NCBI GenBank assembly: GCA_023140385.1
Contig: JAGLLT010000002.1
Location: 24,295-88,294, forward strand
Length of the DNA stretch: 64,000 nucleotides
Source: Candidatus Omnitrophota bacterium
GTDB lineage: Bacteria > Omnitrophota > Gorgyraeia > JAGLLT01
Reading direction: 5' to 3'
Below are positions 4,763-64,000 of this stretch, in pieces. Under the pieces are notes generated by a model that made no database searches, was not told the origin of the DNA, and worked only from the letters and a program-made list of their open reading frames with translations. How positions within the stretch are numbered: the stretch's first letter is position 1; each line of letters starts with the position of its first letter. Position numbers and translations under genes: made by a program.

Positions 4763-4773
4763 TCATATAAAAG

Positions 4774-6303: not shown

Positions 6304-6337
6304 CTTTATAATTGTACAAATAAGCTAAGGGGAAAAA

Positions 6338-22742: not shown

Positions 22743-22753
22743 GTACGATATAT

Positions 22754-30600: not shown

Positions 30601-30712
30601 GCCTCAAATTCTTTTTATAATAGGCTGCATTATATCTATTATAACCTTTTGTACTTTGCTTTGTTTGCCGATGATAATATCTAAGGTTGAGCGAGGGCAT
30701 GAGTCTAATTAA
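27608..30712 (+). CDS. Giant (1034 aa) polytopic membrane protein, putative YfhO/GT-C-type glycosyltransferase (paralog family member 3)
   Basis: Motifs 'PLLWFNKG', 'SVISIQKIQFIIWF', 'NVARLQGMWTWYQ', 'RSPWYKF' and C-terminal 'FNESYHSQWRAIE...NGYANGWYVDK' plus a terminal TM. The ATG overlaps the stop of the upstream gene. Confidence 0.55.
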   Translation: MDKSNKKYLLLCLLIIFIWGLVPLLWFNKGMIITSDDMRLPLTIKQFNLSWYSWNSLYNTGLNYNVQFAALTFFIPQAFLRLFNLSVISIQKIQFIIWFILPGFSMFYMMTQLLKCKAKYIASLAAVSFYMFNLYLDPIWLGFNMANIALYSVLPFVVVVFFKGLEGKYSIIKAAALIALASLAGSASGANPPLLLAVIPILFLSFFIYYLYAVKTKTISMSKGLKFFFRYLCLVILPVILINSFWLIPRIGEVFYSVSDSGFSFLSKDDALQWLQGISANSSIWNVARLQGMWTWYQGWKEPYCPYASIFRENIFFLALSCLLPLMVLIGIVTCKNRYKVFFAPLTVLALIFSMGVHAPFANVYLWCVKYVPFFWIIRSPWYKFTLLTCLGYAFFIGVAAVNIYKFINNRKWRLVIFARRALIAGFIIFNMVYAYPVVFGKFFVSPEERKYLPPNHAVIPDYVLEFSKYINSKDEYFRIMDLPDSQYWAYNWGLSGATPFVTQISLKPVLFNIYTQLAGSESKDVTTAFYDVLYNKGFPAVKLLNILNASYVLQENDVNYIIPDNGIDSPEFVKERLSRQREIKLEKKFGNWDLYKADVDLPYIYIKNKATLIKGGLGVLAALTNTNLLDQPLLIFEERLNKELRKEFFENSMFSEVVFYNYDFETGDNSFIDIQENSLNYFIFLDSSRMNVGFVNKTEGRQKQITIKYNTGFFDETVTFDDENAWYVLSENNKEHIIINNTSVSPQKINLAFNAHAFGRDRNLYVYINNEYINFFPVVNEESKQIILENMLLQPGENILSFANVAASDNYDGKLVSFAIKDDAALGKFTFNKPIDLAEEGEYSIRLYPYPLETYDTLPEQYEISINGDSIKLEKHRKDNTIVYSKKTNLKSGIQVVKIEQVNSGENYVISICPLDNKRDNSRVSKVNFEKINPTEHKVFVDKPDSYFLVFNESYHSQWRAIEASGDELTNHFVVNGYANGWYVDKIKSQELTIQYKPQILFIIGCIISIITFCTLLCLPMIISKVERGHESN

Positions 30713-33700: not shown

Positions 33701-33815
33701 TCAAGGTCAATTTTACGCGGGACTTATAATAAGTGGCTCCATTGTACTAATTTGTTTGATTCCAATAGTTGTAATAATTTTTAGTGGTTTGAATAATAAA
33801 AGGAAACGATTTTGA
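30699..33815 (+). CDS. Giant (~1038 aa) polytopic membrane protein, putative YfhO/GT-C-type glycosyltransferase (paralog family member 4)
   Basis: Motifs 'PLLWFKNG', 'SIIASQKIQFIFWF', 'NVSRFQAAWTWYE', 'RSPWYKW' and C-terminal 'FNEAYDSNWIAAE...NGYANGWLLSE' plus a terminal TM. The start is ATG 30699 or TTG 30687; either overlaps the upstream paralog by 14-26 nt. Confidence 0.55.
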   Translation: MSLIKRGSTINSLIIVILGLCPLLWFKNGYLIKTEDIGIPLSYSEWTNYLFSWFNQRAAGTYPVDNFAAIFFLSLPAVLQKAGLSIIASQKIQFIFWFMLSGFSIYYLIVALNKGKHPNSLIVLPAVIFYMFNLYLEPVWLGFNIANLSAYAGIPFLAGFVINAINSKRYFKYLSLAGLLGIILSGVGVNPPIMYVAVLFMVLWLAYCFIVHVIKIKTVTSARFITFVLSLVLIVTLVNAFWIYPQAKRLLHSTELKPLTEYKETVEEGIKERSKHTSLLNVSRFQAAWTWYEDYEDDPYVLYSEFYKKNKFFILLSIIPVIIVFLSCFNLKGQVYLPFYILLSLMGIIFATGIHAPFSTLNTFLVKYIPGFWMIRSPWYKWSLFTVLGFSVCIYYLAKKVFRLWPKQKLTFGFLSVFVSALFLIYAFPIASGRMFTSEEERHYIPPQHIKIPAYVFEAAQWFNNQKDFCRIMLLHSNARRITDWGYSGYEPVLSYFTHKPLIVPIAADSYGSPYSIPNFKNLLYRWLYINKEGKNERESLVNVKKQNSDKVAISILPMFNVKYLLYEGDIRWSFYDHYESPEFIEAKLALQKGVNLVKKFGRWKIYEIDKKLDHIYAASKINILDGDLEMLEALSRTNLLNYNNVFAHDIDDSFFAYIKKHNLIDKTFFYNRVNFDNETRKNSYMLLSTKDADIFSIKDVPDAAAGRNIEMKFNKDTYESYQINERNYYSFKADGSALEAEIVNNGNSGMLINIRLNCLNGSDKFIDVHLNDRLIKRSFVEKGENKYIKLESLNIKPGHNYITFSAPRSEDNSITAFSSNVGYYCHEFITSLNFAKNGNYLVELYVFPVNQVEDLNKSKDFYINDDALRLDYNESNTAYTSAENAKFFEGKNVIRFLRQKQEDYYVLIKPLSSPQDNEFFELKFNFLNPVQYEVEFDGIDTECLFLFFNEAYDSNWIAAERQTNKVITNHFTANGYANGWLLSELQNNGQTKCVMLKYEIQGQFYAGLIISGSIVLICLIPIVVIIFSGLNNKRKRF

Positions 33816-47676: not shown

Positions 47677-48222
47677 ATGAAACTTATTTTTTTAGACAGG
47701 GACGGTGTAATAAATAAAGATACCCAGGGTTACGTGGCAAGCTGTGAAGAGTTTGAATTTATTCCCGGCTCTCTTGAAGCCATATTAAAGCTTAACACGA
47801 GCGGATATGAGATAAATATTATTTCTAATCAGGCAGGCATAGCCAAGGGCATCTATTCGGTAGAGGATCTCGAAAAAGTTAATAATAAAATGATGCGCGA
47901 GATCGAGAAGGTAGGTGGAAAAATAAATTCAGCTCAATATTGTATCCACGAGGACGAAGATAACTGCTTATGCCGTAAGCCGGCAACGGGTATGTTTAAA
48001 AAAGCGGTTAAAGGGCGCGATGTTGAATTTATGAAGTGTTACTTTATCGGGGATAAGATAAGCGATATTGCGGCCGGCAGGGCGATAGGCTGTAAGACGA
48101 TTTTGGTTTTATCAGGTAAGACAAAAAAAGAGGACGTTGCCTGCTGGAAAATTAAACCGGACTACATAAAAGAAAACCTGAAAGAGTCGGTTGACTGGAT
48201 ACTGCGTAAGGAAAAGAAATGA
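47677..48222 (+). CDS. HAD-IIIA phosphatase, GmhB (D,D-heptose-1,7-bisphosphate phosphatase)-like
   Basis: 'IFLDRDGVIN' is the DxDGT-type motif I. The zinc-binding 'C...HEDEDNCLCRKP' is typical of GmhB/HisB-N. 'IGDKISDIAAGRAIGC' is motif III. Confidence 0.75.
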   Translation: MKLIFLDRDGVINKDTQGYVASCEEFEFIPGSLEAILKLNTSGYEINIISNQAGIAKGIYSVEDLEKVNNKMMREIEKVGGKINSAQYCIHEDEDNCLCRKPATGMFKKAVKGRDVEFMKCYFIGDKISDIAAGRAIGCKTILVLSGKTKKEDVACWKIKPDYIKENLKESVDWILRKEKK

Positions 48223-49349
48223 AAATTTTAATTGTCTATGCTTCTGCCGGGGTTGGCCACAAGAAAGCGGCTGAGGCGGCCTATGAAGCCTTTAGCAAGG
48301 ATAAAGCCGGTTGTGAAGTTAAATTAGCCGATATACTGGACTACACTAATTCGGTAGTAAAGCGCGCCTATCCGGCTCTTTATCTTTTTACCATAAAGTA
48401 TATTCCCTCTGTCTGGGGGCTTATCTTTAAAATTACCAATAACAGAAAGTTTTACAAAATAATAATACCGCTAAAACTCCTGCTTGAGAGGCTGAACAGC
48501 CCGCGTTTTCAGGAGTATCTAAAAAAGGAAAAATTTGATGTTATTATATCTACCCATTTTTACTCATCGGCTATAGCAGGGATTTTAAAAAGAGTTAAAG
48601 CTATTAATAGTAAACTGATTACCGTTGTAACCGATTACCTGGTGCACTCATTCTGGCTGACGGCCGAAAATGACTATTTTGTTGTAGCTTCATCTAAAGC
48701 CCGGGAAGAGCTTTTAAGGGATGGGATAGCCGATGAAAAGATAAAGGTTCTGGGTATTCCTGTCGGAGGGAAGTTTCTGCTTAAGAAGGATAGCGCCCGG
48801 ATAAAAGATAAGCTTAACCTGCGGCCGAAAAAAATAACCATGCTGATTATGGGAGGCGGTTTTGGTGTAGGGCCCTACGAATATCTTTTGAAAGAGCTTT
48901 CACCTTTTAGTGAAAAGGTGGAGTTAATCTTTGTCTGCGGCTATAACGAAGGGCTTTATAAGAAGCTTAAGCTTCTTTCGGCCGCGCTCAAGACTGATGC
49001 CAAAATATTTAAGTACGTTGACAATATAGATGAGCTGATGGAGGCAAGCGACATACTTGTTAGCAAAGCCGGCGGCATAACTGTGAGTGAAGCCTTGGTT
49101 AAAGGAGTTCCTATACTGGCTATCAGGCCTATACCGGGGCAGGAAGAGTCAAATGCCAGGCTTATGCAGGAGCTAAAGGTTTTAAAAAACACCTCCAATA
49201 AGGAGGAAGCTCTCAGCTTTTTAAAAAACGTAATTGAAGAGCCGGATATCCTGGAAAAGATGAAAGAAAACGCCGGCCGGGCAGCCCGGCCAAAAGCGGC
49301 AGAGGAGTTGGTTAATCTTGCGGGAAGAATTGAGCGGGACTATAAATAA
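48219..49349 (+). CDS. GT28-family glycosyltransferase (MGDG synthase/UgtP/MurG-like)
   Basis: N-terminal 'KILIVYASAGVGHKKAAEAAYEAF' is the MGDG_synth-type G-loop. The C-terminal GT-B half is 'LIMGGGFGVGP...VSKAGGITVSEALVKGVPIL'. Confidence 0.7.
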   Translation: MKILIVYASAGVGHKKAAEAAYEAFSKDKAGCEVKLADILDYTNSVVKRAYPALYLFTIKYIPSVWGLIFKITNNRKFYKIIIPLKLLLERLNSPRFQEYLKKEKFDVIISTHFYSSAIAGILKRVKAINSKLITVVTDYLVHSFWLTAENDYFVVASSKAREELLRDGIADEKIKVLGIPVGGKFLLKKDSARIKDKLNLRPKKITMLIMGGGFGVGPYEYLLKELSPFSEKVELIFVCGYNEGLYKKLKLLSAALKTDAKIFKYVDNIDELMEASDILVSKAGGITVSEALVKGVPILAIRPIPGQEESNARLMQELKVLKNTSNKEEALSFLKNVIEEPDILEKMKENAGRAARPKAAEELVNLAGRIERDYK

Positions 49350-50007
49350 GATAAAGCTATTGATTGAGACTGATGTTAATCTGGGTATAGATGAGTATTA
49401 TCTTATGGATAATGATTCAAGAGCTCTTAAGGTACGGCGGCTTGAGGAGTTGAGGGGCGAGGTCTTGAAGTGCCGGAAGTGCGCCCTTTCTAAAACCAGG
49501 AATAACGTGGTTTTTGGTGAAGGTGATCCGGATGCTGACTTACTCTTTGTCGGAGAGGCTCCCGGTAGGGACGAGGATTTGGCGGGCCGGCCCTTTGTCG
49601 GCCGCGCGGGAAAGCTTCTCACTAAAATTATAAATGCTATGGGGCTTACCAGAGAAAAGGTTTTTATTGCCAACATCTTAAAGGACAGGCCTCCCGCTAA
49701 CAGAAATCCCAAAGAGGAGGAGATTGACGCCTGCCGGGGATATCTGTTACGCCAAATTGAAATCATTGAACCAAAAGTAATCTGTGCTCTGGGAACTTTT
49801 GCCGCTCAGGTATTACTGAAGGTGGATACTCCAATCTCAAGGCTCAGAGGCAAATTCTACGATTACCATAATATCAAATTTATGCCCACCTATCATCCAG
49901 CTTATCTGCTTCGTAACTCTGAAGGTAAAAAGCCGGTCTGGGAAGATATGAAAAAGATAATGAACGAACTCGGCCTTAAAAACAATGATAGCTCAAGTTG
50001 TAGTTAA
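49318..50007 (+). CDS. Family 4 uracil-DNA glycosylase (Fe-S type)
   Basis: 'CRKCALSKTRNNVVFGEGDPDADLLFVGEAPGRDEDLAGRPFVGRAGKLL' carries the family-4 motifs A and B. 'HPAYLLRN' is present. The annotated start overlaps the GT28 gene by 32 nt; the true start may be further downstream (for example the ATG at 49405). Confidence 0.85.
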   Translation: MREELSGTINKIKLLIETDVNLGIDEYYLMDNDSRALKVRRLEELRGEVLKCRKCALSKTRNNVVFGEGDPDADLLFVGEAPGRDEDLAGRPFVGRAGKLLTKIINAMGLTREKVFIANILKDRPPANRNPKEEEIDACRGYLLRQIEIIEPKVICALGTFAAQVLLKVDTPISRLRGKFYDYHNIKFMPTYHPAYLLRNSEGKKPVWEDMKKIMNELGLKNNDSSSCS

Positions 50008-51982
50008 CAGGCCATTAAGAAAAGTCTTTGATTATGAAGTTCCCGCGGAGTTTCTTAATCTCTTAAAAATAGGCCATAGAGTTGAGATTATTTTCGCCGG
50101 TGTCCGCTTGGCCGGTTATGTAGTGGGTTTAAAGAAAGAGAGCCGGATAAAAAATTTAAGAAAAATTGAAAAGATTATTGACGAGGATCATCCTTTTAAC
50201 TCCAGACTGCTTACTGTCACCAGAGAAGTTGCCCGCTATTATCTTTGCGGCTGGGGAGAGGTGCTGGAGGCGGCTCGAGGCGTATGTTACAGCGGCAAAA
50301 AAATTAAATTAAAACCGGATGAACCGTTTCATAGGCAGGCCGGTCTTCATAAAAAACTTAAGACCACGGATTTAAAAGACACGCATAAAAAAGAACGCGA
50401 AGATATAATAGGCAAAATATCCGGGGGAGAATTTGAAGCCTTCCTTTACCAGCCGTCAAACCCGAAAGAAAAGATAGATTTTTATCTTCGGTTAATTCGC
50501 GAAATTTTAAGGTTGAAGAAAAGCATTATGCTTTTGGTGCCGGAGATTATGGCGGCAGACAGTATGCTTAAAAGACTGGAGCTAATTTGCCCCGAAGAGA
50601 CGGTGATGCTCCATAGCCGGCTTACGCAAAGGGAAAAAGATTATAATCTGCGCTTATTAAAAGAGCAAAAGGCGCGCCTTGTTATCGGTACGCGCTCGGC
50701 CATATTTGCTCCGCTAAACAATTTAGGCCTGATAATCGTTGATGAAGAAGAGTCAGGGCTTTTTAAAAAGCCTGACGCGCCCAAATTCAACGCTCAAAAA
50801 GCCGCCTTAATAAGGGCGGAGGTTGAATGTTGCCCCATTGTTCTATCCAGCCTGACGCCTTCCGTAGAGTCGTATTACTACGCCGCGAAGAAAAAATATA
50901 TTTTTATCGGAGAAAAAGAAAAAGCGCCTGTTTCTTCAAAGAGGGCGGTTATCGTAAACTTAAGAGATGAAGAGGATATCTACCGGAAAAAGAACCTTCT
51001 CTCATTTACTCTGAGAGAAAAGATTGAGAAGTCGTTAAAAAATAAAAAGAGTGTTGTTCTTTTATATAATCGCCGGGGTTTTTCAACCTTTGTCAGATGT
51101 AGTAAGTGCGGTTATAGCGCCGCTTGTCCCAAGTGCCGGATGAACTTGATTTATCATTACGACAAGAAAAAACTTCTCTGCCATTATTGCGGTTATAAGG
51201 CGGAGCCTCCAAAGCTATGTCCGGAGTGCAAAGGTTCTTACATTAAATATTCAGGCTTTGGCACGGAGAAGTTTGAGAGCGTTTTAAGACGTCTATATCC
51301 GGCGAGCAGAGTAGAGCGCCTTGATGTTGATACCGCCCGCCCAAAAGGCCGGAGGCAGAAAATTTTATCCAGCTACAATAAAGGGGATATTGATATTCTT
51401 ATCGGAACCAGGATTTTATCAAGAGGGGTTGATTTCAAAAATACCGGCCTGATAGGAATAATATCGGCTGATACTTTTATGCAGACAACTGATTTCAGGG
51501 GGCAGGAAAAGCTATTCAGACTTCTTTTTATGATAATAAATCGGGCTGCTTCTATGAAAGAAATTGAGATAGTTGTTCAGACTTTTTTGCCGACTCATTT
51601 TGTTATAAGGGACGCCGTTAAAATGGACCGCGCGGGATTTTACGAGCGAGAGTTAAGAGAAAGAGAGGAGCTGGAACTTCCTCCTTTTTATCACTTTAAT
51701 TGTATAAACCTACGCGGCAAAGATGAAGAGAAACTTATCAGGAAAATTAAAGAATTAAATAAGATTATCCTGCAGGAGGTGAAGAATTACAAAAACCTGA
51801 GTGTGATTGAAGCTGATCCGCTTAATATTATAAAGCAAAGAGGAAGTTACAGGCAGAATATAATTTTAAAAGGGAAAAAATTAACCGATATCTACGAAGT
51901 GATTAACAAAGGCCTTAAACTTTTTAAAAAGGGTTCTGATATTTTTGTAACTGTGGATATTGACAGCTTGGAGTACGCTTGA
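49985..51982 (+). CDS. priA: Primosomal protein N' (PriA) homolog with degenerate Walker A and DExH motifs
   Basis: N-terminal 3'-end-binding-like region. The helicase core is aligned by 'LLVPEI' and 'VIGTRSAIF'. The Cys-rich Zn domain is 'CSKCGYSAACPKCRMNLIYHYDKKKLLCHYCGYKAEPPKLCPEC'. In place of GxGKT the sequence is 'YQPSNPKEK'. In place of DEEH it is 'DEEES'. Confidence 0.8.
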   Translation: MIAQVVVNRPLRKVFDYEVPAEFLNLLKIGHRVEIIFAGVRLAGYVVGLKKESRIKNLRKIEKIIDEDHPFNSRLLTVTREVARYYLCGWGEVLEAARGVCYSGKKIKLKPDEPFHRQAGLHKKLKTTDLKDTHKKEREDIIGKISGGEFEAFLYQPSNPKEKIDFYLRLIREILRLKKSIMLLVPEIMAADSMLKRLELICPEETVMLHSRLTQREKDYNLRLLKEQKARLVIGTRSAIFAPLNNLGLIIVDEEESGLFKKPDAPKFNAQKAALIRAEVECCPIVLSSLTPSVESYYYAAKKKYIFIGEKEKAPVSSKRAVIVNLRDEEDIYRKKNLLSFTLREKIEKSLKNKKSVVLLYNRRGFSTFVRCSKCGYSAACPKCRMNLIYHYDKKKLLCHYCGYKAEPPKLCPECKGSYIKYSGFGTEKFESVLRRLYPASRVERLDVDTARPKGRRQKILSSYNKGDIDILIGTRILSRGVDFKNTGLIGIISADTFMQTTDFRGQEKLFRLLFMIINRAASMKEIEIVVQTFLPTHFVIRDAVKMDRAGFYERELREREELELPPFYHFNCINLRGKDEEKLIRKIKELNKIILQEVKNYKNLSVIEADPLNIIKQRGSYRQNIILKGKKLTDIYEVINKGLKLFKKGSDIFVTVDIDSLEYA

Positions 51983-52017
51983 TGAGGTCTGGCGGCAGAA
52001 CAGCCGCGGGAGGCCAT

Positions 52018-53427
52018 TTAGTGTTTCTCTTTATTGCGATAGGCCTGTTCGATTTTTTGAGATACGTCTTTATAGTTTATGTCGACTTCGTAGATTTTCT
52101 TAAACTCATTTATAGCTTCAGAAAATTGCTCCATCGTTTCATAGGCGCATCCCAGATTATAAATTATATCTTTGGTTTTATCCGAAATCTCAGGAGTCAG
52201 GGAAAGAGCCTTTTTAAACTGGGTAATGGCCAAATCAAGCATATTCTTTTCTTTGAAGCACAGCCCCAGCATATTTAGCGAAGCACTTCTGCGGCCGGGG
52301 TCTTTTACAGATTCCTGAAACTGGCCGATGGCTTCATCAAACACACCTTTTTCTTTAAGTAAAAGCCCGTATTTGTAGCGAAGAGACATATCATTGGGTA
52401 GCTTTGCAACGCTTTCTTTTATTCGTTCAAAGTGGATATCGTTTTTACATTTTTCCAGCTCGTCAATTTTTTCCTTAAATGCCCGGTTTTCAGGGTCATC
52501 GGCTTGATTTTGCTTAAGGCGTGAGAGCTCTTTTTCAATTTTTTTTATTTTAAGACTTTCAATATTCCTTAAGGCTACTTCATTATTAGGTTTAAAAGAG
52601 AGAATTTTTGTATATAGTTCATTAGCTTCATCAAAAAACTTTTTAACTTTATAGTAGTCCGCCAATCTGAATAACATAGAGGTATTTTCAGGGTCGCCTT
52701 TCAGTTTTTCTTTGAGGTTTTGAATAAGGTAATCAATGTCTTCATCGCTCTTAGCTATTCTTGCTTCTTTTTCGAGTTTACTTGCTTCATCTTTATCCTG
52801 AATTTTGCTTCTGAAGGTATCCTGATCCGCCCAGCCGTCTTTTTCTATCGTTTTTAAAGCTGCCAGGTCCTTTAAGCCTTTTTGAACATCCGCGTCATTA
52901 GAAGATAGTTGGTGTGCTCTTAAGTAGTAACTTTGTGATTTATTAAAATCTTCCTTATCTTTATACAGCATGCCTAACTTTTTGAGCGCTTCAAGGTTGT
53001 TTTCATCCAGGCTCAAGCCTTCCTGATAGGTTTTTAGGGCGCTTTCTTTCATTTCCAGATTTAAGAATACTGCCCCCAGCTTAATGAATATTTTGGCGTT
53101 TAGCGGGTCAAAACTTAGAGCTTTTTCGTACTCTTCGAGGGCTTCATTCATCTTGCCGCGCAGCTCTAACTTTTTCGCGTTTAGCATATAGGTTTGCGCT
53201 TTTACTTTGTTCGCGCCGGCGCTAAGAAAGGAGGGAGGATTTTCCTGGAATTTTTTCATCTTGGTCAGGTGGAGGAAGTGGCGAGTATCAGCCAGTTTTA
53301 CGTCTAACAAGAGAGCATGGCTGAAGAGTTCAACGGCGTAATCGTAATTACGCCTTCTAAAAGCCTCCTCGCCCTTTTTTACGTATTGTTCTATCTCTTT
53401 TGGCAGTGCCTTTTCATTTTCACTCAT
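52018..53427 (-). CDS. Tetratricopeptide-repeat (TPR) protein
   Basis: Multiple 34-aa repeats with the W-LG-Y / A-F-A-P pattern ('AIGQFQESVKDP...', 'ALEEYEKALSFDPLNAKIF'). It is convergent with priA. Confidence 0.8.
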   Translation of the reverse strand: MSENEKALPKEIEQYVKKGEEAFRRRNYDYAVELFSHALLLDVKLADTRHFLHLTKMKKFQENPPSFLSAGANKVKAQTYMLNAKKLELRGKMNEALEEYEKALSFDPLNAKIFIKLGAVFLNLEMKESALKTYQEGLSLDENNLEALKKLGMLYKDKEDFNKSQSYYLRAHQLSSNDADVQKGLKDLAALKTIEKDGWADQDTFRSKIQDKDEASKLEKEARIAKSDEDIDYLIQNLKEKLKGDPENTSMLFRLADYYKVKKFFDEANELYTKILSFKPNNEVALRNIESLKIKKIEKELSRLKQNQADDPENRAFKEKIDELEKCKNDIHFERIKESVAKLPNDMSLRYKYGLLLKEKGVFDEAIGQFQESVKDPGRRSASLNMLGLCFKEKNMLDLAITQFKKALSLTPEISDKTKDIIYNLGCAYETMEQFSEAINEFKKIYEVDINYKDVSQKIEQAYRNKEKH

Positions 53428-53516
53428 TCCAAAACTCCCTTTTTCTTAGGCTGACCATATTATAAATTACCACCCGCCCTTTGTCAATAAAAGAAAAAAA
53501 GAGGCGGATTTATTTT

Positions 53517-53545
53517 TTGACTTTAGGGTTTATTCTTGATATACT
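53517..53545 (+). promoter_or_regulatory. Sigma70-like promoter for fmt (-35 TTGACT, 17-nt spacer, -10 TATACT)
   Basis: It sits in the divergent 166-bp intergenic region, about 50 nt upstream of the fmt ATG. Confidence 0.5.
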
Positions 53546-53593
53546 CATCCTGAACGGGAAAAGCGTAAAGTGTAAAAATTCCCCCCTTGGAGA

Positions 53594-54538
53594 GTGGATA
53601 TGAAAGTGGTTTTTTTTGGTACCTCGGTGTTTGCTCTTAAAACAGCTGATTATCTAAAAAACTCAGACTATGAGCTATTAGCTGTGGTAACACAGCCTGA
53701 CCGGCACGGAGGTCGTAGTATGCGTGTTGTCCAGTCTCCGATTAAGGAGTGGGCGCTTGAAAACAAAGTGGTTTTGCATCAGTTTGAAGACTTAAATGAA
53801 GCCGGGCCGCTGTTAAGAAGCCTGGTGGCGGACGTGTTTGTGGTGGCGGCTTACGGGACATTTCTGCCGGTTAGTATTATAAATATTCCAAGTCTACTTT
53901 CGATAAACGTACATCCTTCTCTCTTGCCTGAATATAGAGGGGCGGCGCCGGTAAACAGGGCTATTATCGACGGCAGAACGGAAACGGGAGTGACAATTTT
54001 TAAGATAAGTGAACAAATGGATGCCGGTGATATAATATGCCGGCAAAAGGTAAAAATTGATGAGGGGGAGACCAGCTTAATGCTGGACAAAAGGCTTTCA
54101 GATATTGGCGGCCGGATGGTTATTGAAGCCCTGGACATGATTCGGGATAACAGGTTAAAGCTTATTTCTCAAGACAACTCTCTGGCTACTTTTGCTCCAA
54201 AGCTGAAGAAAGAGGACGGGCGCATAGACTGGATGAGAGACGCGGGGGACATTTACAATCATATAAGAGGAGTCTCCGGCTGGCCGGGCGCTTTTTGCGG
54301 GCATAAAGGCAGGCTTCTTAAAATATACGAGAGCAAACCGGTGACAGGTGAAGGAGTTGAGAAGGGCGGCAAGCCGGGTGAAGTTGTATCTTTAGAAAAA
54401 GGTAAGGCTATTACGGTTAAGGCCGCTAATGGCTATCTCAGAATTCTTAAGCTTCAGCTGGAAGGAAAAAAAGTCCTTAACTCAGAGCAGTTCATCATCG
54501 GCTATGATATGAAGGAAGGTGATGTGCTAACCTCTTGA
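53594..54538 (+). CDS. fmt: Methionyl-tRNA formyltransferase
   Basis: 'KVVFFGTSVFA', 'VVTQPDRHGGRSMRVVQSPIK' and 'INVHPSLLPEYRGAAPVNRAI' are Fmt signatures. A C-terminal beta-barrel domain is present. Confidence 0.9.
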   Translation: MDMKVVFFGTSVFALKTADYLKNSDYELLAVVTQPDRHGGRSMRVVQSPIKEWALENKVVLHQFEDLNEAGPLLRSLVADVFVVAAYGTFLPVSIINIPSLLSINVHPSLLPEYRGAAPVNRAIIDGRTETGVTIFKISEQMDAGDIICRQKVKIDEGETSLMLDKRLSDIGGRMVIEALDMIRDNRLKLISQDNSLATFAPKLKKEDGRIDWMRDAGDIYNHIRGVSGWPGAFCGHKGRLLKIYESKPVTGEGVEKGGKPGEVVSLEKGKAITVKAANGYLRILKLQLEGKKVLNSEQFIIGYDMKEGDVLTS

Positions 54539-54567
54539 TTTAAAAGAGGTTATCTATTGTTGGGTAT

Positions 54568-54596
54568 AAGCCCGAAGCTCGCGGAAGGCTTTTTTA
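54568..54596 (+). terminator. Rho-independent terminator candidate after fmt (AAGCC...GGCTT stem + TTTTTT)
   Basis: A 5-bp GC-containing stem with a long loop is followed immediately by a 6-T run. Confidence 0.4.
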
Positions 54597-54606
54597 GTAA
54601 ATTTAG

Positions 54607-56881
<2,275 letters not shown>

Positions 56882-56892
56882 GGATATTAAAT

Positions 56893-57666
56893 ATGCCGAG
56901 ACGCTTACTTATCGCGGGTAACTGGAAGATGAACAAGACGGCCACTGAGGCTATCCAGTTGGCAGCGGAAATAAAACGCGAACTTTTTGATGTAGACGGG
57001 CTTGATATTCTGGTTTGTCCGCCGTTTACAGCTTTAGTGGCGGTACAGGATGTATTAGGCAGTTCAATAATAGAGCTGGGCGGCCAGAACATGCACTTTG
57101 AAGAAAAAGGCGCTTATACCGGCGAGATATCAGGGCCTATGCTTAAAGATGCCGGCTGTAAGTATGTTATTCTGGGGCATTCGGAAAGAAGGCATGTCTT
57201 TGGTGAGTTGGATGAGGAGATAAATAAGAAGGTAAAAACGGCCATTTCCGACAGGCTGATACCGATACTGTGTGTCGGTGAAAAATTAGAAGAGCGGGAG
57301 GCCGATAGGACTTCTGATGTGGTCCGCGGCCAGCTTGAGGCCGGTTTGATTGACATTGATTTAACGGATAGCGCGAAGCTTGTGATTGCCTATGAACCTG
57401 TCTGGGCTATAGGAACCGGAAAGACGGCTACCAGCCAACAGGCTCAGGAGGTTCATCTGTTTATCAGAGGTTTATTGAATGATAGGTATGGTGTTGATAT
57501 ATCACAGGGTATCCGTATTCTCTACGGCGGCAGTATAAAGCCCGCCAATATCGAGGAGCTGATAAAGGAGCCCGATGTTGACGGCGGTTTGATAGGAGGA
57601 GCAAGTTTGGAGGCCGGCTCTTTTTGTGAGATAGTGAAAAAATCCAATACGGCCCCTAATATCTAA
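56893..57666 (+). CDS. tpiA: Triosephosphate isomerase
   Basis: 'IAGNWKMN', 'ILGHSERR', 'AYEPVWAIGTG' and 'YGGS'. Confidence 0.95.
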   Translation: MPRRLLIAGNWKMNKTATEAIQLAAEIKRELFDVDGLDILVCPPFTALVAVQDVLGSSIIELGGQNMHFEEKGAYTGEISGPMLKDAGCKYVILGHSERRHVFGELDEEINKKVKTAISDRLIPILCVGEKLEEREADRTSDVVRGQLEAGLIDIDLTDSAKLVIAYEPVWAIGTGKTATSQQAQEVHLFIRGLLNDRYGVDISQGIRILYGGSIKPANIEELIKEPDVDGGLIGGASLEAGSFCEIVKKSNTAPNI

Positions 57667-57714
57667 AGTTTACACATAAGGTTCAACCTTGTGTGTAGGG
57701 TTAGAGGAGGTAAG

Positions 57715-58044
57715 ATGTTTACAGTTCTTATAATAGTACATGTTATTGTTAGCCTTATTTTAATTGCCTTGGTTTTATTACAGCCGGGTGAGGGGAAGGG
57801 GCTTTCTGAGACTTTTGGCGGGGGAGTTGCCGAGTCAATCCTGGGTTCAAAAGCAAATAGCTTTTTAATTAAGGCTACCGGAGTGATGGCCGCTGTTTTT
57901 TTCGTTATCTGTGTAACTCTAACGATTATGACTGCCGGTAGAAGCAGGTCACTGCTTGAAAATGAAAGTATTGTGACTGAAGAGTCTCAGAAAATACAGG
58001 CAGCTGAACCTGAACCTTCTCAAGATGAACCGACTCAAAAGTAA
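57715..58044 (+). CDS. secG: Preprotein translocase subunit SecG
   Basis: 'LILIALVLLQPGEGKGLSETFGGG' is the SecG signature (LLQ-GKG...FGGG). RBS 'ggagg' lies 5 nt upstream of the ATG at 57715. The ORF track start at 57691 adds 8 unlikely residues. Confidence 0.75.
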   Translation: MFTVLIIVHVIVSLILIALVLLQPGEGKGLSETFGGGVAESILGSKANSFLIKATGVMAAVFFVICVTLTIMTAGRSRSLLENESIVTEESQKIQAAEPEPSQDEPTQK

Positions 58045-59668
58045 AGCGTCTGTTTATCTAAATAGATTAATTAAAAAAAAGGCACTGTTTATCACAACAG
58101 TGTCTTTTTTTATTTTTAGCGTTCCTCTAGCCGGCGCCCAGGAGATACTCAGCTACGGAGATGCCTATGTATCCGGCTCTATCGCCGATGCCATAACCCT
58201 TATCCCGTTTTTAGCTACTGACAGTACATCGGGCAATATTAACTCGATGATTTTTAACGGCCTCACCAAGGTAGACAAAGATTTAAATATAACCGGCGAC
58301 CTGGCGGAAAGCTATGATGTCTCGGATGATAAGCTGACCATAACTTTTCATTTAAGAAAAAACGTCTTATGGCAGGATGGTGTTAAGTTTACCGCTGACG
58401 ATGTTAAGTTTACCTTTGACATTATCCTTGACCCGCGAAACGCGGCTCCCTATGCCGCGAACTTTCAGGACATAGAGGAGATTAAGGTTGTTGATAAGTA
58501 TACCGTCCAATTTAAGTACAGGAAGCCTTATGCCCCGGCTCTGTTAAAATTAGGTACCGCGATTATACCCAAACATCTTTTAAAAAATATAGATATTAAA
58601 AATTGTAATTTTGCCAGAGACCCCGTTGGTACAGGCCCTTATAAATTAGCCGAGTGGAAAACAGACCAGCATATAATATTAGACTCTTTTTACAATTATT
58701 TTGAAGGGCGGCCTTTCATTGACAAGTACGTTGAACGTGTTATTCCTAATCAGGCGGTTCAATTTTTAGAGCTGATTACAGGAGGCATAGACTCTATGGG
58801 CCTTACTCCATACCAATATAAATACCGCACAGACACAAAAAAGTTTAAAGAGCGATTTGTTAAGTATAAATATTTAAGCCGTTCCTATACCTACATCGGC
58901 TATAATCTTAAAGACCCCCTATTTGAGGACAAAAGGGTCAGGCAGGCCTTGTCATACGCGGTAGATAGGAAAGCTATAATAGATGGTGTTTTAATGGGGA
59001 TGGGAGAGGAGTGCACCGGCCCTTTTATAAAAGGTACGTATGCCTACAATGAAGAGGTTAGGAAGTATCCTTATAATCCCCAAAAAGCAAAGGAACTATT
59101 GAAGGAAGCCGGCTGGATTGATAGGAATAACGACGGTATTTTGGAAAAGGATGGGCTGAAGTTTTCTTTTAAATTAATTACTAATCAGGGCAATAAACAA
59201 AGGGAGGACGTAGCTACCATTATCCAGCAGAACTGGCGGGAGATAGGGGTTGAAGTTGAGATACAGGCTATCGCCTGGGCGGCTTTTATAACCGAGTTTG
59301 TAGATAAAAGGAACTTTCAAGCCTTGATTTTAGGCTGGACTATGCCCATAGACCCGGATAACTATAACGTCTGGCATTCAGACTCAATGAAAGACGGCGG
59401 GCTTAATTTTATCAGCTACCGGAATAAAGAGGTTGACTCTCTAATTGAGAGGGGAAGAGAGACTTATAATCAAGACGAAAGGCAGAGGATATACCGCAAA
59501 ATTCACGAGATAACGGCTGAAGAACAGCCCTACACCTTTTTATATTTTCCCTATGCCCTGCCCGCGGTTTCAAAAAGGTTTAAAGGTATAGAGCCGGCGC
59601 CGGCAGGTATCAGTTACAACTTTATTAAATGGTATGTTCCCGAAGTTGAACAAAAATATACCCGTTAA
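58025..59668 (+). CDS. ABC transporter substrate-binding protein, family 5 (oligopeptide/dipeptide/nickel type)
   Basis: N-terminal signal peptide. Length and motifs ('GTGPYKL', 'W..D', 'ILGWTMPIDPD') fit SBP_bac_5. Confidence 0.85.
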   Translation: MNRLKSKASVYLNRLIKKKALFITTVSFFIFSVPLAGAQEILSYGDAYVSGSIADAITLIPFLATDSTSGNINSMIFNGLTKVDKDLNITGDLAESYDVSDDKLTITFHLRKNVLWQDGVKFTADDVKFTFDIILDPRNAAPYAANFQDIEEIKVVDKYTVQFKYRKPYAPALLKLGTAIIPKHLLKNIDIKNCNFARDPVGTGPYKLAEWKTDQHIILDSFYNYFEGRPFIDKYVERVIPNQAVQFLELITGGIDSMGLTPYQYKYRTDTKKFKERFVKYKYLSRSYTYIGYNLKDPLFEDKRVRQALSYAVDRKAIIDGVLMGMGEECTGPFIKGTYAYNEEVRKYPYNPQKAKELLKEAGWIDRNNDGILEKDGLKFSFKLITNQGNKQREDVATIIQQNWREIGVEVEIQAIAWAAFITEFVDKRNFQALILGWTMPIDPDNYNVWHSDSMKDGGLNFISYRNKEVDSLIERGRETYNQDERQRIYRKIHEITAEEQPYTFLYFPYALPAVSKRFKGIEPAPAGISYNFIKWYVPEVEQKYTR

Positions 59669-59677
59669 GGGGCAGAT

Positions 59678-60649
59678 ATGTTTAAATACATAGTTAAAAG
59701 ATTATTTTTGATACCCCCCATGCTTATGGGCATCTCCCTGATTGCGCTTCTGGCTATGCACCTTACTCCGGGCGATCCGGCAAGTATGCGCTACGGGCTT
59801 AATCCTGAAGTCTCGGGTTCGGCGAGGGCGCATCTAAAGGAGCTTTACGGCCTGGATAAGCCGGTTATTGTTCAGTATGGAGGATGGCTTAAAAGAATAG
59901 TAACCCTGGACTTTGGAGATTCATTCATTGACGACCGGCCTGTGATAGAGAAAATAAAAGAGCGCCTGCCGGCTACACTTATCCTGCAAATTTCGGCGCT
60001 TATCCTTATTTTTTCAATTGCTCTGCCCATCGGTGTAATGTCGGCCGTCAAACAAAACTCGTTTTTTGATAAGGCGACCACCTTTTTAGTTTTTGTAGGT
60101 TTTGCCACACCGACCTTCTGGCTGGCACTGCTATTGATGAGGTTTTTTGGTTTTCAACTGGAGTGGCTGCCGATTTCAGGGATGAGCCCCTGGTATGCTC
60201 AGGATTACTCCTTGCCGCATAGAATTCTGGATTTATTATGGCATCTAATTTTACCGCTTTTCACCCTGGCCTTTACCGGCCTGGCCGGCATATCACGCTA
60301 TACGCGTTACAGTATGCTGGAGGTTATCAGGCAGGATTATATCAGGACCGCCCGGGCTAAAGGGTTAAAAGAAAACAAAATTATATACCATCACGCCTTA
60401 AAAAACGCGCTCCTGCCGGTTATAACAATTCTGGGATTGACCTTGCCGGCTTTAATCGGCGGAAGTTTTATCTTTGAAACGATATTTGCCTGGCCCGGCA
60501 TGGGAAGGCTGATGTATACGGCTATTTTGCAGTACGACTATCCGGTGGTTATGGGGGTAGGCATAATAAGTGTTTTTCTGACATTAACCGGAATTTTAAT
60601 CTCCGATATTTTGTATGCCGTAGTAGATCCAAGGATTAGATATGAATAA
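59678..60649 (+). CDS. ABC transporter permease (DppB/OppB-like)
   Basis: Six TM helices. The BPD_transp_1 EAA-like loop is 'RTARAKGLKE'. Confidence 0.85.
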   Translation: MFKYIVKRLFLIPPMLMGISLIALLAMHLTPGDPASMRYGLNPEVSGSARAHLKELYGLDKPVIVQYGGWLKRIVTLDFGDSFIDDRPVIEKIKERLPATLILQISALILIFSIALPIGVMSAVKQNSFFDKATTFLVFVGFATPTFWLALLLMRFFGFQLEWLPISGMSPWYAQDYSLPHRILDLLWHLILPLFTLAFTGLAGISRYTRYSMLEVIRQDYIRTARAKGLKENKIIYHHALKNALLPVITILGLTLPALIGGSFIFETIFAWPGMGRLMYTAILQYDYPVVMGVGIISVFLTLTGILISDILYAVVDPRIRYE

Positions 60650-61487
60650 GAAGAAAAGAGACTGGAGAAAAAGATACGCCTTTGTCGGATTGAGCGTCAT
60701 TATCGTGATGTTTGCCGCGGCAATCTTTGCCGGTTTTATTACGGCCTATTCGCCGAATGAGACAAACCTTGCTCCTGAGGCAAAGTTACAGCCTCCCTCA
60801 AGAGAGCATCTTTTGGGTACAGATGACCTGGGGCGCGATGTCTTTTCGCGTATGGTTTACGGCGCCAGAATTTCTTTGAGTGTAGGTTTTGTGGCGGTTA
60901 TCATTTCCGTCGTAATAGGGGTGGTTCTGGGAGCGATCTCCGGTTATTACGGCGGCTGGGTTGACATTCTCATTATGCGTGTAGTGGAAATCGTTATGTG
61001 TTTTCCGCGAATATTTTTAATATTAATGTTTCTGGCTTTTTTAGGGCCGAGCATTATTACGGTGATGGTGATTATTGGAGTAACCGGCTGGACAGGACTA
61101 GCGAGGCTGGTGAGGGCGGAATTTCTTTCCTTAAAAGAAAGGGACTATGTGCAGGCGGCCAGGGCGCTGGGGGCTTCGGACTTCAGGATAATTTTCAGGC
61201 ATATACTGCCTAATGCTCTCTCGCCCGTCTATGTCAGCGCGATTTTAGGTGTTGGCGGGGCCATACTAATTGAGTCTGCGCTTAGCTTTTTAGGGCTGGG
61301 AGTTCAGATTCCAATGGCTAGCTGGGGCAATATTTTGACATCGGGTATGCACTACATTGAAAGCGCCTGGTGGCTGATGCTCTTTCCGGGACTGGCAATA
61401 CTGATTACCGTTTTAAGCTATAACATTTTAGGAGAGGCCCTGAGAGATTTGCTTGACCCGAGGCTTAAAGGGTACGGACAAAAATAA
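60642..61487 (+). CDS. ABC transporter permease (DppC/OppC-like)
   Basis: TM topology. 'QAARALGASDFRIIFRHILPN' is the EAA motif. Confidence 0.85.
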   Translation: MNKKKRDWRKRYAFVGLSVIIVMFAAAIFAGFITAYSPNETNLAPEAKLQPPSREHLLGTDDLGRDVFSRMVYGARISLSVGFVAVIISVVIGVVLGAISGYYGGWVDILIMRVVEIVMCFPRIFLILMFLAFLGPSIITVMVIIGVTGWTGLARLVRAEFLSLKERDYVQAARALGASDFRIIFRHILPNALSPVYVSAILGVGGAILIESALSFLGLGVQIPMASWGNILTSGMHYIESAWWLMLFPGLAILITVLSYNILGEALRDLLDPRLKGYGQK

Positions 61488-61488
61488 G

Positions 61489-62439
61489 ATGCTTAAAGTC
61501 AGAAACTTAAAAACCTATTTTTATACCCAGCGCGGTACGGTTAAGGCGTGTGACGATATCAGCTTTGACATTGACCACGGCAGAAACCTCGGGCTAGTGG
61601 GTGAGTCCGGCTGCGGCAAGAGTATGTGCTGTCTTTCTATATTAAAACTAATACCGCCTGAAGGAAATATTGTATCGGGTGAGGTTTTATATAAGGGTAG
61701 AGATATCCTTTCTATGGATAATAAAGAGCTGAGAAAGATAAGAGGCAATAAGATATCAATGATTTTTCAGGAGCCGATGACTTCTTTAAATCCGGTTCTA
61801 AGTATTGGGGAGCAGATGACAGAGGCTGTTCTTGCTCACAAAGATATAAATTATAAGGAAGCAAAGGCCTTATCAATTGAACTGTTAAGTAAGGTAAAAA
61901 TAGACAGGCCCAAAAGCCGCTTCAGCGAATACCCGCATAATTTAAGCGGCGGGATGAGGCAGAGGGTGATGATTGCTATGGCAATATCCTGCCGGCCGGA
62001 TATCCTGATTGCCGATGAGCCGACAACGGCGCTTGATGTGACTATACAGGCGGGAATTCTCGAACTGCTCGATGAACTGCAGAATGAATATAATATGTCG
62101 GTTTTGATAGTCAGCCATGACTTTGGAGTAATCGCACGCCTGGCAGACAGGGTGGCGGTAATGTATGCCGGAGAAATTGTTGAGTACGCCGGCGCGGAGG
62201 ATCTCTTTAAAAATCCGCTTCATCTTTACACAAAGGGGTTGTTATCTTCCATTAAACAGATAGACAAGAGAGACAAAAGATTGTCCACCCTTAAAGGGGC
62301 TGTATGCGAATTGGATAATCTGCCGAAAGGATGCAGATTTTCACCCCGCTGTGATTTGGCCTCTTCAGAGTGCCGGGAGGCTTTGCCCGAACTAAAAGAG
62401 ATTAGCGCGGGGCATTTTGTCAGATGTGTAAAAAGTTAG
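61489..62439 (+). CDS. ABC transporter ATP-binding protein (DppD/OppD-like)
   Basis: 'GLVGESGCGKS' is Walker A. 'LSGGMRQRV' is the ABC signature. 'LIADEPTTALD' is Walker B. It ends in the oligopeptide_C Cys-rich tail. The likely start is ATG 61489, abutting the upstream stop. Confidence 0.9.
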   Translation: MLKVRNLKTYFYTQRGTVKACDDISFDIDHGRNLGLVGESGCGKSMCCLSILKLIPPEGNIVSGEVLYKGRDILSMDNKELRKIRGNKISMIFQEPMTSLNPVLSIGEQMTEAVLAHKDINYKEAKALSIELLSKVKIDRPKSRFSEYPHNLSGGMRQRVMIAMAISCRPDILIADEPTTALDVTIQAGILELLDELQNEYNMSVLIVSHDFGVIARLADRVAVMYAGEIVEYAGAEDLFKNPLHLYTKGLLSSIKQIDKRDKRLSTLKGAVCELDNLPKGCRFSPRCDLASSECREALPELKEISAGHFVRCVKS

Positions 62440-62449
62440 GAATTTAGAT

Positions 62450-63358
62450 ATGAAGGTTATTGTTGAGGTAAAAGGCTTAAAAAAACAGTACTTCGCGGGT
62501 AGAGGCCTGTTCAGGAAGGAAGCGGATATTATAAGGGCCGTTGACGGCCTGGACTTGACCTTATATAAAGGCAAAAACCTTGGGCTGGTGGGTGAGTCCG
62601 GCTGCGGCAAGACTACGGCGGGCAAACTTATTCTGGGGCTTATAAGGCCTGATAGCGGCAGTGTGAAGATAAACGGTACTGATGTCTTTGATAAGTGTAA
62701 AAAGAAGCGGCTTTTGTTAAAGAAGTCGGCCCAGATAATATTTCAGGATCCCTATGGTTCGCTTAACCCCCGAATGAAAATTGGAGATATTGTATTAGAG
62801 GGTGTTGATATATTCAGACTGGCAAAAAAAGAGGGTAGAGAGAAAAGGTTAAAAAAACTACTTGGGCTTGTCGGACTGCCTTATTTTGCTAAAGACAAAT
62901 ATCCCCATCAGTTTTCAGGCGGGGAACGCCAGAGAATAGCTATTGCCAGGGCGCTTTCAACCGAGCCGGAGTTTATCGTTTGCGATGAGGCGGTTTCCTC
63001 CCTTGATATGTCAATCAGGGCGCAGATTTTAAATCTTCTCAAAGACCTTCAGGACAACCTCGGCCTGAGCTATCTCTTTATCAGCCACGACTTAAATGTT
63101 GTTAAATATATCTCTGACCAAGTGGCGGTGATGTACAGGGGAAGGATAGTAGAGTACGCGGAAAGCAGCCTTCTCTACCAAAACCCCCGCCATCCATACA
63201 CAAAACTTCTATTATCAGCCAACCTCTCTGCCAATCCGGATGAGAGAAAAAGAAAGTTTATCCTGCCCGAACTGGATGATAAATTAACAAAAGAGTACAA
63301 AGAAACACCCCCACCCTTAGAAGAGGTAGAACCCAACCACTTTGTCCAACCCTGTTAA
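62450..63358 (+). CDS. ABC transporter ATP-binding protein (DppF/OppF-like)
   Basis: 'GLVGESGCGKTT' is Walker A. 'FSGGERQRIAIARAL' is the ABC signature. 'FIVCDEAVSSLD' is Walker B. Confidence 0.9.
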   Translation: MKVIVEVKGLKKQYFAGRGLFRKEADIIRAVDGLDLTLYKGKNLGLVGESGCGKTTAGKLILGLIRPDSGSVKINGTDVFDKCKKKRLLLKKSAQIIFQDPYGSLNPRMKIGDIVLEGVDIFRLAKKEGREKRLKKLLGLVGLPYFAKDKYPHQFSGGERQRIAIARALSTEPEFIVCDEAVSSLDMSIRAQILNLLKDLQDNLGLSYLFISHDLNVVKYISDQVAVMYRGRIVEYAESSLLYQNPRHPYTKLLLSANLSANPDERKRKFILPELDDKLTKEYKETPPPLEEVEPNHFVQPC

Positions 63359-63369
63359 AAATAGTAGTA

Positions 63370-63393
63370 CGTATCGCGTCGCGCGTATCGCGC
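63370..63393. repeat. GC-rich direct repeat / hairpin element (CGTATCGCG-TCGCG-CGTATCGCG), possible bidirectional terminator between convergent genes
   Basis: A two-copy 9-mer with internal GCGCG-TAT-CGCGC and CGCG-TCG-CGCG stem options. It is a GC island in an AT-rich intergenic region. An A-run follows on the plus strand, which is a T-run for the minus-strand gene. Confidence 0.35.
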
Positions 63394-63420
63394 AGGAAAG
63401 AAAAAATGAGTGAAATTAGG

Positions 63421-63876
63421 TCAGGCGGATTGGGTTGATATATCGATTTTCCTTATAAAAAAAACATATATCAAGCTTAGAACATAAATAGCGGCTACCC
63501 ACCAGTAGGGATATGAAGTGATTTTGAACGTTATTGCGGCGTTATCATTTTGCATCATAATCTGAGCTTCTTTTATTAATTTTATATATTGTTCTGTGTT
63601 GGGATCAATCTTCCATAACGCTACAGATAGGGTAATTCCCAAATATCCAGATAGCGCCCATTTTGCCTTAGGCGAGTTTCTAAAAAAGAAAATAGCAGCT
63701 ATTATCCCCATTAAAAAAAGCAATATTATCCTAAGGGTAATCAGGAGGAAGGGGATTCCAGTATAATAGTTAAATGTAGTCTCGTAAATAACTGCGTCGA
63801 AAAAGAATAATAGAAGAAAGAGCAGCTCCATAGTTATTAAGTATGCTATAATTCTATCTACGATTTTATACTTCAT
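63421..63876 (-). CDS. Hypothetical small membrane protein (4 predicted TM helices)
   Basis: A 151-aa ORF with good RBS 'aggagcg' upstream on the minus strand. Four hydrophobic helices. No recognisable motifs. Confidence 0.5.
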   Translation of the reverse strand: MKYKIVDRIIAYLITMELLFLLLFFFDAVIYETTFNYYTGIPFLLITLRIILLFLMGIIAAIFFFRNSPKAKWALSGYLGITLSVALWKIDPNTEQYIKLIKEAQIMMQNDNAAITFKITSYPYWWVAAIYVLSLIYVFFIRKIDISTQSA

Positions 63877-63904
63877 TTATCGCTCCTAAATGTTGATGCA
63901 ATTA

Positions 63905-64000
63905 CTCTCCATAATGAGTTTTAGTCCTGTGAACATAAATTATCTTTTTCTTCTCATCTACGGAATAAATAATCCTATCTTTATATGTAAGCCTGATGGA
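63905..64000 (-). CDS. C-terminal fragment of a RelE/ParE/YoeB-superfamily type II toxin (gene continues beyond window end)
   Basis: Minus-strand translation of the last 96 nt gives '...SIRLTYKDRIIYSVDEKKKIIYVHRTKTHYGE*'. This matches the C-terminal R-x-IY-x-VD...(V/I)-x-I-x-(V/I)-x-HR-x-x-x-Y pattern of RelE/ParE toxins. The stop is at 63902-63904. Confidence 0.4.

Follow-up and report, generated by a model that had tools for sequence, protein, structure and literature searches.

An Omnitrophota PriA that has lost its ATP-site motifs at a conserved priA locus: a probable natural pseudohelicase

PriA is the main initiator of replication restart in bacteria, and the usual description of its helicase motifs is one of near-universal conservation. 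Here we analyse a priA gene whose product has lost the ATP-site motifs; it lies in a stretch of 64,000 nucleotides of a Candidatus Omnitrophota bacterium (contig JAGLLT010000002.1 of assembly GCA_023140385.1), referred to below in its full length as the window. A naturally helicase-dead PriA is not without precedent, since the protein of Deinococcus radiodurans was shown in 2015 to be what its authors named a pseudohelicase: it matches motifs I and II poorly, with an arginine for the GKT lysine, has no measurable ATPase or helicase activity, binds single-stranded DNA (ssDNA) with a Kd of ~215 nM and fork DNA with one of ~109 nM, and interacts with DnaB (Lopper, Boone & Morrow 2015, PMC4504706). 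Motor-dead forms of Escherichia coli PriA have also been described. The priA300 allele (K230R) does away with ATPase, helicase and translocase activity, leaves cells much like wild type and supports restart in vitro; K230R and K230A/D mutants alike are motor-dead and still assemble the primosome, with defects reported in the PriA-PriC pathway, in Mu transposition and in other contexts (Windgassen et al. review). The original prediction for this DNA had called on priA300 as helicase-dead yet restart-proficient, in agreement with that review.

The gene occupies positions 49985 to 51982 of the forward strand, as do all the parts of it given below, and is one open reading frame (ORF) of 665 aa without interruption. 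The database protein MCK5305578.1, annotated as primosomal protein N' from a Candidatus Omnitrophota metagenome-assembled genome (MAG), is its exact 665-aa sequence. Over its whole length the product is recognised by the NCBIfam model for the replication restart helicase PriA, TIGR00595, with 443.4 bits against a cutoff of 230.35, and it scores under the cutoffs of the lineage-specific PRK05580 equivalog models. Pfam finds the 3'-end-binding domain (3'BD), the Cys-rich region (CRR), Helicase_C and the PriA C-terminal domain (CTD), and its DEAD/helicase ATP-binding domain stays under cutoff. A phmmer search of Protein Data Bank (PDB) chains matched E. coli and Klebsiella PriA along the entire length at E ~1e-70, identity to the E. 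coli protein being about 25%. The AlphaFold2 (AF2) model, built from a 74-sequence alignment, has a mean predicted local distance difference test (pLDDT) score of 88.1 and a predicted template modelling (TM) score of 0.88; Foldseek aligned it best with E. coli PriA (8fak_H, TM 0.81/0.84), then with a winged-helix-deletion construct (6dcr_A, TM 0.73/0.76), and the next family, Mfd, stayed below a TM score of 0.4. According to the model and Pfam, two RecA-like lobes, the PriA CTD and the overall PriA fold are present. The window protein is thus PriA by homology family, as defined by TIGR00595.

What sets it apart is the ATP site. In phmmer, the stretch flyqpsnpkekidfyl lies without gaps opposite wllagvtgsgktevyl of E. 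coli PriA, and vdeeesglfkk opposite ideehdssykq, the alignment being gap-free across motifs I to II. The original prediction had placed YQPSNPKEK where GVTGSGKT is expected and DEEESG where DEEHD is expected. The former position was borne out by the E. coli alignment and by a MAFFT alignment of 120 database homologs (aa 155-163, nt 50447-50473, the start having been put 3 nt late at 50450), the latter by the same two alignments (aa 253-258, nt 50741-50758), and the flanking blocks are in place (LLVPEI at nt 50531-50548, VIGTRSAIF at nt 50681-50707). GxTxSGKT, DEE[H/Q] and QxxGRxGR occur in 112 of the 120 homologs. In the window PriA, motif I (Walker A, 50453 to 50476) reads PSNPKEKI for G(V/I)TGSGKT; the loop is unchanged in length and keeps only the lysine position (K163), with the changes G157P, T159N, S161K, G162E and T164I, so that it differs at four of the five positions (G157, S161, G162, K163, T164) that are fully conserved in the 113 intact proteins defined below. 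The model places strand 152-156, a 3-residue loop and helix 160-176 there. Motif II (Walker B, 50741 to 50752) is DEEE for DEE(H/Q): its acidic residues are kept and its histidine, found in 91% of the intact set with glutamine as the usual alternative, is lost (H256E).

The losses extend beyond these two motifs. The Q-motif glutamine, which serves adenine recognition and is invariant in the intact proteins, is His134 here (50384 to 50386) and H, H, N and G in the four members of the closest clade; the tail of motif Ia, LTPQ in other PriAs, has become AADS (aa 190-193, nt 50552-50563); motif III (50846 to 50863) is SSLTPS for GSATPS (G288S, A290L); and motif VI (51530 to 51553) is MIINRAAS for QVAGRAGR in both phmmer and the alignment, its arginine finger gone. 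The original prediction had therefore described the extent of the loss correctly for Walker A and the DExH histidine, and had overlooked the Q-motif glutamine, the Ia tail and motifs III and VI. Walker A GxxGxGK[ST], motif II DE(E)[H/Q], motif VI QxxGRxGR and the Q-motif glutamine are none of them present in the window PriA.

The distribution of these changes was measured against 113 proteins whose motifs I and VI are intact, on the 125 columns that show at least 90% conservation in that set. The window PriA departs from consensus at 42 of these columns, and the clade formed by the four nearest P-loop-less proteins keeps 65 in full and 30 in part and has lost 30. Lost columns make up 16 of the 27 in the regions of motifs Q, I, II, III and VI, as against 14 of the 98 elsewhere (odds ratio 8.7, Fisher p=7e-6). 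In superfamily 2 (SF2) helicases the elements lost here bind adenine, phosphates and Mg2+ and sense the gamma-phosphate, and those retained mostly contact nucleic acid or serve structure. The site for ATP binding and hydrolysis thus appears no longer to exist, and the protein is predicted to be folded, DNA-binding and ATP-blind.

The rest of the protein is well preserved, as the original prediction had said of its 3'-binding N-terminus and Cys-rich domain. The 3'BD (aa 1-98, 49985 to 50278; PF17764 at aa 4-97, E=4.9e-22) keeps the FDY pocket, F15-D16-Y17, which phmmer aligns with F16-D17-Y18 of E. coli ('tfdyllp'), and has kept Y17, P20, G30, V33, G44 and Y86 among its conserved positions. Also kept are the motif Ia core LVPEI (50534 to 50548), motif Ib GTRSAIF (50687 to 50707), whose R237, S238 and F241 are invariant across all aligned sequences, and motif IV NRRGF (51068 to 51082), whose N362, R364 and G365 are invariant in 74 of 74. 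The CRR (51098 to 51229; PF18319, 28.3 bits against a cutoff of 26) has two predicted zinc sites; its eight cysteines (C372, C375, C381, C384, C399, C402, C412 and C415) and both histidines (H391, H400) are invariant in the same 74-sequence alignment. Motif V (51404 to 51436) is partly kept, as GTRILSRGVDF for GTQMIAKGLDF, with G474, T475, G481 and F484 retained and M477I and K480R changed. The CTD (51683 to 51964; PF18074 at aa 567-660, E=2.6e-10, 41.4 bits) follows, and a series of conserved positions in lobe 2 and the CTD has likewise been kept.

The winged-helix (WH) domain that lies between the 3'BD and the helicase core of the E. coli protein (residues 109-181) is absent from the window PriA. 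Its place is taken by a short linker (aa 99-133, 50279 to 50383) that the model renders with low confidence, residues 101-133 having pLDDT values of 55-61 and no secondary structure. With 34 aa, the spacer between 3'BD and core is within the range of 37 short motif-intact PriAs (26-44 aa) and below that of 76 long ones (95-315 aa), and the entire 650-690-aa class of PriAs, motif-intact members (e.g. P0003-P0030) included, is without the domain. Since it is missing from short intact PriAs too, the WH domain does not define the whole PriA family, and its absence and the loss of the motor are separate matters. The short PriAs have by nature the form that was engineered in the E. coli delta-WH PriA (PDB 6dcr).

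The genomic setting tells where the motor was lost. The order HAD phosphatase, MGDG-synthase-like glycosyltransferase, uracil-DNA glycosylase (UDG), priA and, further on, fmt is found at four P-loop-less loci, namely the window, L001 (P0001, 88% identical), L085 (P0002, 51%, GCA_964554835.1) and L086 (P0020, 37%), the contig of L001 being fully syntenic with the window. The same order is found at two motif-intact Omnitrophota loci, L088 (P0003) and L089 (P0024, GCA_023818895.1). Relatives do share the loss, a point the original prediction had raised: it is seen in these orthologs at 88%, 51% and 37% identity as well as in P0137, and persists through divergence to the last of these values. A TPR-repeat gene of 469 aa lies between priA and fmt on the reverse strand (52018 to 53427); an opposite-strand TPR gene of ~465 aa is found there in four of four dead loci and in neither of the two intact ones. 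As a character independent of the PriA sequence, it groups the four dead loci together. At its place the intact loci have def or nothing. The window gene is a positional ortholog, because its locus is where other Omnitrophota carry an intact priA, and synteny together with the TPR marker indicates that the motor was lost within Omnitrophota, in the resident priA. The gene directly upstream (49318 to 50007, forward strand) encodes a protein of the UDG superfamily (PF03167, E=9.7e-40), and its end overlaps the start of priA by 23 nt. A UDG gene takes this position at L001, L085, L086, L088 and L089 as well, that is, at every Omnitrophota locus examined, dead or intact; family-4-type UDG and priA are a conserved pair, one gene serving base-excision repair and the other replication restart.

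We consider it very probable that the orthologous priA of this lineage has turned into a pseudohelicase, which would act as an ATP-independent scaffold for fork recognition and helicase loading. Abandoned forks would be recognised through the 3'BD pocket, by way of the nascent leading-strand 3' end, and through surfaces of the helicase core, CRR and CTD. The protein would then offer an ATP-independent platform bringing DnaB, directly or via a loader, back onto the lagging-strand template; direct reloading of DnaB has been suggested for Deinococcus. In this the proposal agrees with E. coli PriA K230R (priA300) and with D. radiodurans PriA. Such a PriA would be unable to translocate 3'-5' or to peel off the nascent lagging strand, so that a fork lacking an ssDNA gap would have to rely on some other helicase or nuclease or else fail to restart, and restart would be limited to forks already exposing lagging-template ssDNA or would depend on those other enzymes. 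Sequence, structure prediction, synteny and selection all fit the proposal in the original prediction of a motor-dead PriA kept for primosome loading, the inactivity itself being deduced from the sequence.

Because the DNA comes from a metagenome assembly, one explanation to weigh is an artefact, in which an intact P-loop is masked by misalignment or by an error of sequencing, assembly or frame. Assembly error is ruled out by the identical 665-aa protein on 7 contigs from different samples and assemblers, the longest of 116,645 bp. The 88% identical ortholog P0001 is in the same state with substitutions of its own (PSDSKEKI), and three further motifs, far apart in the gene, are lost too. A GxxxxGK[ST] pattern is missing both from the PriA protein and from every ORF that overlaps the gene in any of the six frames, and over 50300-50900 stop codons abound in the two remaining forward frames; with the alignment to E. 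coli free of gaps across motifs I to II, neither an intact GxGKT elsewhere nor a frameshift or sequencing error, either of which would have spoken against the original prediction, was found. An artefact is vanishingly improbable, and this explanation was rejected. The original prediction had also allowed for a priA being lost in a reduced genome, with the ORF a pseudogene not yet disrupted. Omnitrophota genomes are small (0.86-3.20 Mb) and the clade sits on long branches, with a mean distance of 1.33 to short intact PriAs against 0.88 among intact ones. In addition, gene calling at L085 (contig CAZKQD010000018.1 of GCA_964554835.1) divides priA, at 4436-6398 of that locus, into one ORF of 121 aa for the 3'BD and another of 535 aa for the helicase core, CRR and CTD; the two overlap at an A7 run in the linker where a 1-nt indel would join them. 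The cause may be an assembly error in this homopolymer, or the gene may truly be split; the break falls in the unconstrained linker, and E. coli PriA split by a new start at residue 157 is reported to be almost fully functional (Windgassen et al. review). Set against decay is the selection on the gene. By the Nei-Gojobori method, with the syntenic P0001 gene on a contig from another sample as the partner, the ratio of nonsynonymous to synonymous substitution rates (dN/dS) of priA is 0.186 overall, similar to its neighbours (glycosyltransferase 0.180, UDG 0.108, TPR gene 0.208); it is 0.145 in the 3'BD and 0.159 even in helicase lobe 1, which holds the dead motifs, and relaxation is confined to the 45-residue linker, at 0.45. 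Purifying selection acts on the gene. Moreover, the full-length ORF persists in orthologs at 88%, 37% and other identities, more than half of the family-conserved columns are fully kept, the eight zinc cysteines among them, and the losses cluster at the ATP site instead of being evenly spread. A decaying gene is therefore highly unlikely, and the pseudogene reading was rejected because dN/dS is like that of the neighbours and the losses are concentrated at the ATP site.

Another explanation is that a canonical priA lies elsewhere in the genome and that the window copy is a specialised paralog in some other, non-restart role. It draws on the fact that 64 kb of the genome was inspected and on a scan of the GTDB genome collection for the pattern GLIIVDEE, where no close relative appeared among the matches listed, the best locus among them being 34% identical, from an Omnitrophota MAG. 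However, the gene sits exactly where related Omnitrophota hold an intact priA, the four dead loci are mutually syntenic and thus orthologs rather than scattered duplicates, and when all ORFs of the window, in six frames, were searched by phmmer with its own PriA and with two intact ones, no second PriA-like ORF came up. We regard a paralog as unlikely and rejected it on the grounds of positional orthology and of the single PriA-like ORF in the window. It is also conceivable that the protein is still an enzyme, binding or hydrolysing nucleotide at a non-canonical site, or that the ATP pocket has been repurposed for another ligand or partner. The window PriA, P0001, P0002 and P0137 all keep the K163 position and the acidic DEE of Walker B and also have in common an IIN in the former motif VI; lobe 1 is under purifying selection; and a second, weaker nucleotide site, of location not given, has been reported in E. 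coli PriA (Windgassen et al. review). Against this, all the elements by which SF2 proteins hold ATP have gone together, from the Q-motif glutamine and the Gly-rich P-loop with its Ser/Thr to the arginines of motif VI, and in E. coli PriA K230R alone already abolishes activity. The replacements also vary by lineage (PSNPKEKI, AKSEQSKT, ARNQEDKI, LENSYEKF), as expected of relaxed rather than redirected selection. A retained or new enzymatic role is thus distinctly unlikely. For the pseudohelicase scaffold that we prefer, the conserved K163 and DEE and the second E. coli site are adverse points, by which a residual or altered ligand site is possible. Other points weigh in the same direction: a second intact priA may lie beyond the 64 kb; without the WH domain, which all short Omnitrophota-type PriAs lack, forks may be recognised otherwise than in the E. 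coli model; the lack of ATPase activity, the binding of forks and the interaction with DnaB are predictions; and the partners of the scaffold in Omnitrophota (DciA, DnaC-like, PriB-like) are putative.

The loss is not restricted to this clade. When a profile of its four members was run against 1.84 billion representative proteins and the best 150 were scored for motifs, at least 24 further 50%-identity clusters were without both Walker A and motif VI, the replacement residues differing in each. Wherever a motif-less member bears a phylum name, it is Omnitrophota (the P0137 cluster, P0163, P0167 and P0276). A separate group (P0077/P0078/P0098/P0099) is a 70-member cluster of Candidatus Infernicultor aquiphilus, Atribacterota, found on many contigs (37 for one member). 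Apparent intermediates were also seen, with Walker A kept and motif VI lost in P0168, P0177 and P0179 and the reverse in P0152 and P0199; they may show in what order the motifs decayed, or may still be working enzymes whose motifs are unusual. In a rough neighbour-joining tree of 264 PriAs the dead proteins form 11 maximal all-dead clades, with a Fitch minimum of 6 state changes, and for several of them the nearest PriA is an intact one and not another dead one; being crude and probably subject to long-branch attraction, the tree is taken only as evidence for more than one loss. On balance, loss of the PriA motor seems to be recurrent, concentrated in small-genome Omnitrophota and present also in Atribacterota, and not an oddity of Deinococcus.

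The window PriA resembles that of Deinococcus-Thermus in being a PriA ortholog with non-consensus Walker A and B that is retained in the genome, and the functional logic proposed for the two is alike. It differs, in a comparison that rests on the published description of the Deinococcus protein and not on aligned sequence, in belonging to the phylum Omnitrophota, in a deeper degeneration that has erased the glycine-rich loop, the Q motif and motifs III and VI, and in being without a WH domain. Its origin is independent of Deinococcus because intact positional orthologs exist within Omnitrophota; nearest intact relatives and synteny alike point to this phylum and not to descent from the Deinococcus-Thermus lineage. 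The protein derives from a PriA helicase, has its Walker A and B motifs replaced and is kept by selection, as a pseudohelicase should be, and it appears to fit the class of the D. radiodurans protein, the loss of activity and the binding of DNA and DnaB being what we infer from the motifs it retains. What is new here is an independent, more extreme and lineage-wide case of an already-known kind of PriA. A literature search for PriA and Omnitrophota, within the library used, returned a nomenclature list only, with no earlier description of a motor-less PriA from this phylum.

Unlike the E. coli K230 mutants, which are engineered single substitutions in an otherwise intact motor and work with PriB, DnaT and DnaC, the window PriA is a natural multi-motif loss fixed in a lineage. 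With canonical PriA of E. coli and Klebsiella pneumoniae (8fak, 6dcr, 6dgd, 4nl4) it shares the 3'BD, two RecA-like lobes, an inserted two-zinc CRR and the CTD, and it differs from them in lacking the ATP-site motifs and the WH domain, so that by domain content the delta-WH construct 6dcr is its nearest structural analogue. Short (~660-670 aa) intact PriAs of other Omnitrophota, such as P0003 and P0024, are like it in length class, lack of the WH domain and locus, at 35-39% identity, but they keep GITGSGKT, DEEH and QVAGRAGR. The Atribacterota PriA (P0099 cluster) has likewise lost motifs I, II and VI (SNDFTRRV/DREN/EVISSFKK) and kept eight cysteines and full length, whereas it belongs to a separate lineage, its nearest intact relatives are ~820-aa PriAs and not those of Omnitrophota, and it has also lost the PE core of motif Ia (LAPTE).

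The wider window is of mixed composition, with a step in GC content near 48 kb from ~30-38% (positions 1-48000) to ~40-45% (48000-64000). A long glycan-biosynthesis cluster, nearly all of its genes pointing one way, makes up the low-GC part, with GT2 glycosyltransferases, an asparagine synthase and a carbamoyltransferase and, as seen from the syntenic L001 contig, a DegT aminotransferase, an epimerase and methyltransferases. The window also has four forward-strand paralogs of 1034-1171 aa with 27-32% identity and several hydrophobic segments (8437-11952, 22655-25834, 27608-30712 and 30687-33815), which are probably large membrane GT-C glycosyltransferases; the first has a weak Pfam match to GT-C_AftD, arabinofuranosyltransferase-like, and the other three have no Pfam match. 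Downstream of priA follow fmt, gap, pgk, tpiA, secG and an oligopeptide ABC transporter. A search of the whole 64 kb with Rfam at gathering thresholds gave no family, and no tRNA, rRNA or riboswitch.

That the motor is dispensable for primosome assembly is what E. coli genetics (priA300) and one biochemical study, on Deinococcus, indicate. This locus provides an independent natural case in which the entire ATP site has been erased and the remainder is under purifying selection, at a place in the genome where sister lineages keep intact motifs. It follows for annotation that the name primosomal protein N'/replication restart helicase overstates the activity of motif-less PriAs. The matched pairs of intact and dead orthologs offer a test of what the helicase activity is for. 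Together with other motif-less PriAs, the case suggests that the loading scaffold and not the motor is the core selected function of PriA in some bacteria. If loss of the motor is indeed recurrent, the conserved and selectable function of PriA in these bacteria would be ATP-independent fork recognition and helicase loading, and these lineages would be a natural experiment on when the motor is dispensable.

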